DNA of 64,000 bases from the IMG/VR virus record IMGVR_UViG_3300042895_002216; one strand, given 5' to 3'. This DNA is from a virus (Duplodnaviria; Heunggongvirae; Uroviricota; Caudoviricetes). The position numbers and the translations under genes were made by a program. Shown in pieces: positions 60,386 to 62,000 of the stretch. Within the stretch, counting starts at the first letter, position 1. Each line of letters opens with the position of its first letter. The notes beneath the pieces are model-generated. The model was not told where the DNA came from and did not search any database. It was given only the letters and a program-made list of their open reading frames with translations.

Positions 60386-60895
60386 ATGAAAAAGGAATTA
60401 GCAGCAGAGGATCTTGATTTTATCAGATTCTGTATAGAAGAACTGGAGATCGAGACCAGCCCCAATATCAGCATAGGCGACGACCATAACAAGGCCAAGC
60501 AGGTCCGAGCTATGGGTTACTATACACCAGTGGATAACCAGATCTGGGTACTACGCGGACTCCGGGTAGCAGCTGACTGGTACCGGACCCTAGCCCATGA
60601 ATTGGTACATTGGCGCCAGCGCGAGTTGGGCCAGCAGATGGATGGTTCGGATGGGTCAGACCTGGAGAATGAAGCTAATTCTAAAGCTGCAGTCCTACTA
60701 CGTGAATGGGGCAGAAGGGATGAAGCAATCTATAGCGAACCAGTGGTGGAGACTCAGGATGAAATGAGTAGTCCACGGACGCAATACTACCTGGAGTACT
60801 ATGGTAACCTTAGCCCATCAGGCTTCAGTCTCTCTACTGTAGGCGAAGAGGTCCGGATTACAATTCCCCCATCAGATTCCTGGCCTCAAGTATAA
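60386..60895 (+). CDS. HExxH metallopeptidase-like late protein
   Basis: RTLAHELVHWRQ...ENEAN; ATAAATAA at 60374. Confidence 0.75.
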   Translation: MKKELAAEDLDFIRFCIEELEIETSPNISIGDDHNKAKQVRAMGYYTPVDNQIWVLRGLRVAADWYRTLAHELVHWRQRELGQQMDGSDGSDLENEANSKAAVLLREWGRRDEAIYSEPVVETQDEMSSPRTQYYLEYYGNLSPSGFSLSTVGEEVRITIPPSDSWPQV

Positions 60896-61496
60896 GGTTA
60901 GTAAGGTCGTCTTTAATCTCGTCCCTGTACTCTTGTCTGTGCAGGGTTTTTTGTATAACATGTAATTCAACACCGTGCCAGGTTAGGAATCTCTCGAATA
61001 GATCTGCACCAGCAAAACGAGCCATCCGGTCCGGGGTTTCCATAACAACCATCGAGACCCGCTTGCGCAGGACAGACTCCATAATCTTGTCGAATCCGCC
61101 CCTACCTTCTAGGCTACCGGCCTTACCGATATCCCCTATAACCTGGTCTACCCTGATCCCGGCCCGGGTACAGTACTCTAGGACCCTGTCCTGCTGAGCC
61201 TGCAGCCGCTTCTGGCTAGAGACACCGGCCTTGCCCTGGTCCGGGATTCCAGCCGCCCGGCAGTATACTATCACCTCTCGAGTTTGAGGTAGTCTACTCC
61301 CTAGTAGGTAGAGTAGCTGCTGCTTGTCGTAGTAGGTCCGCCCGTTTATAGAGTTCTTCCACTTATCCACCCGGCCCTGGGCTACGTAACCTTCTAGAGT
61401 CTTCAACGAAACCCCTAGGAATTCCGCGGCCTGCTTCTTGTACATGAGTTCCCCGCTAGGGAAGGGTCTTAGTTCTTGTGTTTGTTCCTGTTCCAT
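60858..61496 (-). CDS. IS607 TnpA-like protein (MerR-type HTH plus serine recombinase fold), catalytic Ser apparently absent
   Basis: AAEFLGVSLKTL HTH; YCRAAG in place of YARVSS; PDRMARF; GVEL; late promoter at 61501; minus strand (track label is wrong). Confidence 0.85.
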   Translation of the reverse strand: MEQEQTQELRPFPSGELMYKKQAAEFLGVSLKTLEGYVAQGRVDKWKNSINGRTYYDKQQLLYLLGSRLPQTREVIVYCRAAGIPDQGKAGVSSQKRLQAQQDRVLEYCTRAGIRVDQVIGDIGKAGSLEGRGGFDKIMESVLRKRVSMVVMETPDRMARFAGADLFERFLTWHGVELHVIQKTLHRQEYRDEIKDDLTNLILEARNLMGEL

Positions 61497-61499
61497 GGG

Positions 61500-62000
61500 G
61501 TTATTTATCCGGGTACCCAGCTGCTGGTCGAGAAGTCCACGGGCCCGGGTTCCCGCGGTTTCCGGCTAGACCCCGCCTACTCGGGCCCCTCTAGACTCTG
61601 GGGCTTCCGGTCGGGCCGCGGAGCCGAGGCAGGGGTTACTCCCTAGTCCCCATAAATGCACAGTCTGTATCCTTTGGGCGCTGCCAGCTGCCTGTACTCC
61701 CTAGTCCCGAGTAGGCCGGTGGTTGGCTGGGCAGGCTGGGGTCCGGGTCCTGGCCTAGGTAAGAGTCCGGTACCTTGGTCTTGGCTAGTCTAGGTCTGGG
61801 TCTATAGGATAGGGTTCTGAATAGGGTTGGGTATAGGGTCTGGTATACCCGTTATTTTTCTTTTTATGTATATAAGTAGACAGAGTCTTGCCTATAGAGT
61901 TTCTTCTTAGAGTAGTATAATTTCTTAGAGTAGTAGGGCGCGCCTCTAAGCTTTGGGACGCAAACGTACCCATGGCCCGGGCCTGGACCCATTGGGTATA
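61500..62000. repeat. GC-rich non-coding zone with G-tracts
   Basis: Two ACTCCCTAGT copies; five GGG runs in about 61798-61838; duplication TTTCTTAGAGTAGTA near 61903-61935. Confidence 0.75.

Follow-up and report, generated by a model that had tools for sequence, protein, structure and literature searches.

A domesticated, serine-less IS607-type TnpA-like protein as candidate reader of an oriented 10-bp word in a jumbo phage

The window analysed here, a stretch of 64,000 nucleotides from a circularly assembling jumbo phage genome (record IMGVR_UViG_3300042895_002216; 270,962 bp, or 271 kb, 38% GC), contains a gene related to the IS607-type transposase gene tnpA and an array of a repeated 10-bp word. 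The gene, referred to here as the TnpA-like gene, is the open reading frame (ORF) at 60858-61496 on the minus strand, and its 212-amino-acid (aa) product (P0001) comprises a helix-turn-helix (HTH) followed by an IS607-type serine-recombinase domain. The 10-mer, ACTCCCTAGT on the plus strand and ACTAGGGAGT when read on the sense strand of the gene, occurs exactly ten times in the window, and these ten copies are the only ones in the whole genome (0.09 expected by chance); no copies with one mismatch were found genome-wide. All ten are on the plus strand, between 53518 and 61705 (8.2 kb). The core is sharply 10 bp long, with a weakly G/T-rich 5' flank and A/C on its 3' side.

A first-pass annotation of the window had counted four copies within 60099-61705, and all four are present. 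Two exact copies precede the gene, one distal (61696-61705) and one proximal (61638-61647, 58 bp from the distal copy), both in a GC-rich (~0.66) non-coding zone at 61513-61800 that is followed by an AT-rich stretch at ~61840-61900. The third (61296-61305) is inside the TnpA-like gene, where it encodes L-G-S of an invariant linker, LLGSRLPQ. Measured from the TnpA-like ATG, the proximal copy is ~140 bp and the distal copy ~200 bp upstream, and the copy inside the gene is ~190 bp downstream. The fourth (60099-60108) lies between the terminator hairpin of a DUF932-like gene and the end of a small basic-protein gene. Two further copies are inside an AAA_25 ATPase gene (58668-58677, encoding Y-S-L-V, and 57912-57921, encoding D-S-L-V). 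The remaining four are distal (53518, 54049, 54289 and 54966; span 53518-54975); two of them adjoin early-promoter cassettes, and three are placed around or within a sigma-70-family gene. A structured RNA in the 224-nt upstream zone was considered and rejected, the fold being no better than that of shuffled sequences (z +0.72).

The IS607-type HTH and serine-recombinase fold proposed in the first-pass annotation is agreed upon by Pfam, NCBIfam, PHROG 6620 and AlphaFold2 (AF2)/Foldseek. The Pfam Resolvase profile matched residues 94-188 over its positions 9-103 (E 1.6e-11), and HTH_17 was matched with E 1.5e-5, the excisionase/MerR-type HTH (HTH_17/MerR_1) being residues 21-63. The NCBIfam IS607 transposase profile NF033518 was matched over positions 1-171 of 187 (E 8.4e-26) at 90.7 bits, which falls short of its curated cut-off of 110 bits, and PHROG 6620, the other matching family, is named "transposase". 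The order of an N-terminal MerR-like HTH and then a serine-recombinase catalytic domain was found with Pfam, and the secondary structure of the AF2 model is concordant. That model, built from 25 homologues (mean predicted local distance difference test score, pLDDT, 80.7), has a strand at 75-81, a 12-residue loop at 82-93 and a helix starting at 94.

The best matches in both sequence and structure are catalytic domains of IS607-family TnpA (3lhk, 3lhf, 6dgc, 3ilx and 6dgb). Chains of 3lhk, 3lhf, 6dgc and 3ilx occupy all of Foldseek ranks 1-10, their best chains having target-normalised template modelling (TM) scores of 0.74-0.78 and root-mean-square deviations (rmsd) of 2.0-2.7 Å; 6dgb is at ranks 15 and 17 (TM 0.63), and the first other serine recombinase is at rank 11. 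Other small serine recombinases were matched more weakly (target-normalised TM 0.5-0.6, rmsd 8-9 Å). In the same kind of search the N-terminal part of the model resembled Pukovnik Xis (4j2n) and BldC (6ama). A homodimer model of residues 72-212 scored 0.54 against 0.00 for the best control, passing a mark that 21 of 30 proteins solved as pairs also reach, whereas none of 23 solved as single chains does. At least 95% of its contacts agreed between runs, partner pLDDT was at least 83, and the modelled interface takes in residues 155-163 and helix E. As dimers of the IS607 family have already been solved, this result indicates likeness to that family and is not proof of dimerisation.

Canonical IS607 TnpA has its catalytic serine two residues after the arginine of the motif YxRVS (position R+2). 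In the TnpA-like protein the motif is V-Y78-C-R80-A-A82-G, and the GCT codon at 61251-61253 (minus strand), noted in the first-pass annotation as part of YCRAAG, does encode Ala82 at R+2. The distribution of this substitution was examined among homologues. A word-indexed search yielded 70 of them, at 45-96% identity, and many of these lie on phage contigs 100-270 kb long. When 1.84 billion cluster representatives were searched exhaustively, 301 relatives emerged, with a sharp gap beyond the 12 closest clusters. An alignment and tree of 121 sequences comprised a terminal clade of 74 and 47 relatives outside it. Within the clade the R+2 residue is Ala in 67 members, Ser in five, and Arg and Gly in one each; outside the clade it is Ser in 30 of the 47. 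Canonical IS607-type sequences (YxRVSS/T) are at the base of the tree, followed by a derived group in which R+2 is variable (S, A, N, K, D, E, P or G) and inside which the 74-member clade is nested. The five Ser-bearing members, P0030 and P0058 among them, are at four separate places on the tree, among Ala sequences, which looks like a one-base Ala/Ser toggle at a position that no longer needs serine.

A VSS sequence 11 residues further on, which the first-pass annotation had flagged and proposed to examine by alignment and structural modelling, is present at residues 92-94. These positions vary in the clade (V, T, K, Q, D and others at the first; S, G, A or L at the second; A, S or V at the third), and several members have T, S or A in place of Cys79; at positions 79 and 92-94, no Ser, Thr or Cys is shared by all 74 members. 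The downstream VSS is not conserved and there is therefore no substitute nucleophile there. Other residues of the active site are kept: Y78, R80, D156, R157 and R160 occur without exception in the 74 members and position 122 is D or E, these residues having been matched to resolvase Y6, R8, D36, D67, R68 and R71 by alignment and motif, not by superposed coordinates.

The gene is fixed in these phages. It is single-copy, with one Resolvase-domain match in the whole genome. In the IS607 family tnpB is a frequent but not obligatory companion. No tnpB-type ORF adjoins the gene, as the first-pass annotation had observed, and the TnpB zinc ribbon (Cas12f1-like_TNB, PF07282, the sole TnpB model searched) was not found anywhere in the 270,962 bp. 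In every relative with a readable neighbourhood the TnpA-like gene is convergent with a gene for an HExxH protein of 133-187 aa, beyond which are a DUF932-like gene (372 aa) and an AAA_25 ATPase gene (~376 aa); the DUF932-like and AAA_25 neighbours are still present beside a homologue of only 32% identity. The ORF is full-length and intact in the 74 clade representatives, 49 columns are invariant among 25 aligned homologues, and pairwise dN/dS is 0.03-0.28, i.e., the gene is under purifying selection. Single copy number, fixed synteny, purifying selection and the clade-wide Ala at the nucleophile position support the conclusion that the gene is domesticated and not mobile, as had been suggested from the window.

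The 10-mer accompanies the gene. In six relatives with 51-70% protein identity the exact word is present at 6-12 copies per 10-20 kb, and never on the opposite strand. The layout is shared as well: two to six copies at 57-58-bp spacing in a GC-rich zone upstream of the gene, one copy in the TnpA-like gene, two in the AAA_25 gene and others kilobases away. One lineage has a second copy 57 bp further on, inside a lengthened active-site loop of the TnpA-like gene. When IMG/VR was scanned for paired copies, 21 loci were obtained, of which 14 hold a TnpA-like gene, with the word on the strand of the gene in all 14; three of the 21 are the distal end of the same array.

A codon alignment of the AAA_25 gene from seven phages has 33 of 361 third positions invariant, and its longest invariant nucleotide run, TACTCCCTAGT, is the 58668 copy with the T that precedes it. 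The first site in the gene, at 57912, is kept in five of the seven; in the two most distant phages it is shifted by a few codons and not lost, with a shifted exact copy nearby in one (L008) and a one-mismatch copy in the other (L009). In the TnpA-like gene, CTA-GGG-AGT is used for L-G-S of LLGSRLPQ in six of seven phages; the seventh keeps the peptide with synonymous codons and therefore loses the 10-mer. This pattern of codon use indicates that the DNA of the 10-mer is itself under constraint inside coding genes.

More distant relatives, at 29-49% identity, carry ACTACGGAGT, which differs by one base, always on the sense strand of the gene and upstream of, inside and downstream of it. These relatives belong to the derived group with variable R+2 or to the deepest part of the clade. 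The pairing of ACTACGGAGT with the gene is seen even on contigs of 1.2-1.6 kb, in which a given 10-mer is expected ~0.001 times. In every lineage sampled, down to 29% identity, copies precede the TnpA-like gene at a distance within 30-300 bp and share its orientation. Position 5 of the word is G or C, and as both forms are mixed within each of two loci (L022 and L040) this position is tolerant. The association of gene and 10-mer is ancient. When the word was compared with the HTH, Tyr19 versus Ser19 seemed to be correlated with it; the correlation breaks in P0050, and no specificity residue is named. One further candidate relative locus (L044) proved to be a 26-residue match only, and additional searches for related loci with P0084, alignment A3 and P0086 gave nothing useful.

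Text searches for the 10-mer returned many papers on nucleosomes and chromatin and no phage paper. These matches are taken to be coincidental because the Widom 601 positioning sequence presumably contains the word. A likeness of ACTAGGGAGT to a T7-like promoter core (...ACTATAGGGAGA) was considered but is no part of the interpretation.

The start of the TnpA-like gene is preceded at 61499-61512 (minus strand) by a 14-mer, CCGGATAAATAACC, a promoter word of the ATAAATAA type (T4-late-like) that is separated from the ATG by 2 nt. The 14-mer occurs twice in the genome, the second time at 41573-41586 (minus strand), upstream of a patatin gene; the identity of the two upstream words had been pointed out in the first-pass annotation, and the patatin assignment was verified with Pfam. 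The promoter word is kept before the ATG in relatives of the gene. A start context of ATAAATAACC, 4 nt and ATG is common to the TnpA-like and HExxH genes, and words of the ATAAATAACC type precede ~57 ORFs of the genome, at 4-7 or 16-30 nt. Since ATAAATAA resembles T4-type late promoters and recurs before ~57 ORFs, late expression of the TnpA-like gene is plausible.

The HExxH gene (60386-60895, plus strand) encodes a zincin-like protein of 169 aa with weak matches to Tox-MPTase3, DUF6782 and MPTase-PolyVal; it is convergent with the TnpA-like gene, overlaps its 3' end by 38 nt and is a conserved neighbour in most relatives. The DUF932-like gene (58908-60026, plus strand, 372 aa) and the AAA_25 gene (57719-58852, plus strand, 377 aa, a RepA/DnaB/RecA-like P-loop ATPase) are likewise conserved neighbours. 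Between them and the HExxH gene an ORF of 47 aa (60113-60256) is on the minus strand, as is the TnpA-like gene; a gene of 44-54 aa is present in relatives, and no family match was found for the 47-aa ORF. It is extremely basic and Lys/Arg/Ser-rich, ends in ...VGQG and is at the same place in L003, L009 and L042, where RPGVHSK and SKNY are motifs in common. A role within the same module as a small peptide that binds or condenses DNA is conceivable. The five genes from 57719 to 61496 (AAA_25, DUF932-like, basic ORF, HExxH and TnpA-like) have a GC content at third codon positions (GC3) of 0.48-0.60, against 0.23-0.33 in other genes, and this island persists in diverged relatives across the clade without amelioration. 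The large terminase gene is ~63 kb from the locus.

At the distal end of the array, a phage sigma-70-family gene with regions 2 and 4 (extracytoplasmic function (ECF)-like; 54117-54878, plus strand) has 10-mers immediately upstream (54049), inside (54289) and downstream (54966) of it. Relatives, too, carry copies near their sigma genes. Twelve early-promoter-like cassettes of 50-68 nt, ending in TTATATTTG/A, are distributed over 49074-57187, and those at 53528 and 54070 directly follow a 10-mer copy. On the other side of the TnpA-like gene, two tRNA-like elements (62012-62102 and 62177-62302, plus strand) pass the Rfam tRNA gathering score with 30.9 and 37.2 bits; Rfam found nothing else in 59900-62500, and the GC-rich zone was empty. 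The tRNA-like elements have many alternative joints and very high summed depth in lake DNA and RNA contigs, which suggests that this region is a repeated element or one shared by many organisms.

The phage is present in 18 lake DNA runs from 2016-2024. In two lake samples separated by eight years, the DNA contigs show the region in colinear order, with no joint at any 10-mer, although this evidence is weak in that contigs drop rare forms. Contigs from RNA libraries, derived from relatives 90-95% alike, span the AAA_25 and DUF932-like genes and include short pieces of 60843-61135; strand, timing and level cannot be read from them, and carry-over of DNA is possible. A megablast of 57000-64000 against phage records gave no match.

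The explanation favoured here, at somewhat better than even probability, is that the TnpA-like protein is a domesticated, non-cleaving, dimeric DNA-binding reader of the 10-mer array. The link between the gene and the word is strongly supported by their co-localisation across deep divergence, from which binding is inferred. According to this proposal, a TnpA ancestor would have kept its HTH, the fold of its catalytic domain and its dimer while losing the nucleophile; lacking a nucleophile, the protein would therefore neither transpose nor recombine. It would act instead as a sequence-specific, bivalent DNA binder, with each HTH reading one copy of ACTAGGGAGT. Dimers on the 57-bp-spaced upstream copies, the copy within the gene and the copies scattered over 8 kb could then have the effect of occluding or bridging DNA. 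At the least, this would control the gene's own promoter, because copies are placed on both sides of the ATG; a likely wider effect would be to control or compact the early/middle region next to it, with its sigma-factor, AAA_25 and DUF932-like genes.

Several observations count against this proposal. No clean co-variation between the word and the recognition helix was obtained, since the 10-mer is near-invariant in the superclade. An IMG/VR locus of 4,471 bp (L042) has the HExxH/DUF932/AAA_25 module and five sense copies, including the 57-58-bp-spaced upstream ones, and yet an unrelated ORF of 134 aa, on the other strand, takes the place of the TnpA-like gene (at 1-1800). Perfect invariance over the 10-bp core is stricter than in most HTH operators and would also be in keeping with an enzyme that nicks or modifies DNA, or with a polymerase signal. 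The motifs of IS1535 are phased at 10-11 bp, unlike the intervals of 57 bp and of kilobases found here. Finally, the invariance of the catalytic arginine/aspartate set (R80, D156, R157 and R160) throughout the clade is unexpected for a dead enzyme. The predicted dimer interface (155-163) could explain, without recourse to catalysis, why D156, R157 and R160 are kept; R80 is invariant without an obvious structural reason.

A rival idea, considered unlikely, is that the 10-mer has another reader (a sigma factor/RNA polymerase, or a strand-specific nicking or modifying enzyme) or is a packaging or replication signal, and that the TnpA-like gene merely lies inside the array. Such an arrangement would account for the sharp-edged, invariant core, as expected of enzyme or polymerase signals, for the presence of the word without the gene in L042 and for the copies that abut two early-promoter cassettes and bracket the sigma-factor gene; it also has candidate readers or partners in the conserved neighbours AAA_25, DUF932-like and WYL_2. 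It is harder to reconcile with the gene-oriented copies immediately upstream of the gene in all sampled lineages, even on the shortest contigs, with the absence of the word from the opposite strand in every gene-holding locus, and with the fact that the ancestral IS607 family binds short direct repeats of this kind. An origin- or centromere-like locus, in which the 10-mers are iterons and the TnpA-like protein is an initiator or adaptor working with AAA_25 and the DUF932-like protein, amounts to one specific form of the favoured explanation and is judged improbable. The triad of genes is kept down to 32% identity, the module has its own GC3, the GC-rich block is followed by an AT-rich stretch, and there are copies both upstream of and inside the gene of the putative binder, as in lambda O/ori and plasmid Rep iterons. 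However, copies scattered over 8 kb within coding genes are atypical of iterons, the start context looks late and not early, there is no link to a primase or polymerase, and whole-genome GC skew has no inflection at the locus, although the skew is uninformative on the origin.

That the protein is still an active recombinase or transposase, using Ser93/Ser94, Tyr78, Cys79 or, in a few members, Ser82, is highly improbable. The five invariant active-site residues and the five clade members with Ser at R+2 would be explained, as would a deep, array-bearing relative (P0081) that reads YCRVSG; set against this are the variation at 79 and 92-94, the single copy and fixed synteny of the gene and, more weakly, the lake contigs that run colinearly through the 10-mers. 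A decaying remnant without function, to which the lost nucleophile and the NCBIfam score below cut-off might point, is scarcely credible: the intact ORFs, the invariant columns and the conserved start context argue otherwise, and the dN/dS values contradict it.

A more ambitious form of the favoured explanation, offered only tentatively, is that the locus is a chromosome-organising centre, in which bivalent dimers would draw the early/middle DNA, over ~8 kb, together as a single oriented nucleoprotein body. This body might be a late switch (a polar roadblock or silencer of the early region and the sigma gene), a start point for replication or packaging, or both, and the AAA_25 and DUF932-like proteins might be its dedicated partners. 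The role in packaging or condensing DNA envisaged in the first-pass annotation is speculation, as the same data would be obtained with autoregulation, early-gene shut-off, an origin-like or centromere-like locus or a polar barrier. Of that annotation's overall reading, domestication and the link between gene and 10-mer (as co-localisation) stand. The array geometry, with spacing of 57 bp or kilobases, differs from that of the helically phased 9-bp motifs at which filaments of IS607-family TnpA start.

Domesticated transposases are well known in eukaryotes. In the literature searched, no description was found of a serine-less IS607-type protein in phages, nor of a serine transposase turned non-catalytic DNA binder and fixed in a phage clade. 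The TnpA-like family would be a natural Ser-to-Ala "dead" recombinase, kept as a scaffold for DNA recognition and synapsis. The 10-mer is invariant, strand-specific, selected within coding sequence and shared down to 29% identity, and may therefore mark a cis-acting system, so far unrecognised, in abundant freshwater jumbo phages. Lake metagenomes contain this phage in abundance, and its system comes down to a single small protein and a single word of 10 bp.

Several known systems are similar in part. In iteron and centromere systems the sites of the binder lie around its own gene, and the phage locus resembles lambda O/ori, plasmid Rep iterons, ParR/parC and TubR/tubC in having identical oriented sites around the gene of the putative binder, with an ATPase gene adjacent. 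This is an analogy only: there is no homology, and the phage sites extend over 8 kb and are embedded in neighbouring coding sequence. Small serine recombinases (resolvase/invertase) have the catalytic domain at the N-terminus, the HTH at the C-terminus and a catalytic serine; the phage protein has the inverted domain order and no such serine. Its N-terminal fold is like those of Xis (4j2n) and BldC (6ama), which bind oriented direct repeats head to tail and are architectural and non-catalytic. Those proteins have a single domain, whereas the phage HTH is joined to the dimeric body of a dead recombinase, so that each particle would carry two DNA-binding heads.

The nearest system is IS607-family TnpA (IS607, IS1535, ISC1904/ISC1926), with which the phage protein shares the order of MerR/excisionase-type HTH, flexible linker and catalytic fold with helix E, as well as Y-x-R, the D/E equivalent of D36, DRxxR and a predicted dimer. 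IS607-family TnpA uses its HTH to nucleate on four direct repeats of a 9-bp motif, after which it spreads and pairs DNA segments, its active sites being kept away from the DNA during filament formation; in IS1535 the 9-bp motifs have 10-11-bp phasing and are within 60 bp of the element end (PMC6188088). Both proteins are thus associated with several short, directly repeated DNA words. The phage words differ in being 10 bp long, 57 bp or kilobases apart over ~8 kb and partly within coding genes, and the phage protein differs in the replacement of Ser by Ala and in a loop that is 11 residues longer after strand 1. Its gene is present once, is inherited vertically and has neither a tnpB nor transposon ends. 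By nucleophile, profile score and mobility the protein is not an IS607 transposase; it is best likened to the DNA-recognition and synapsis half of one.

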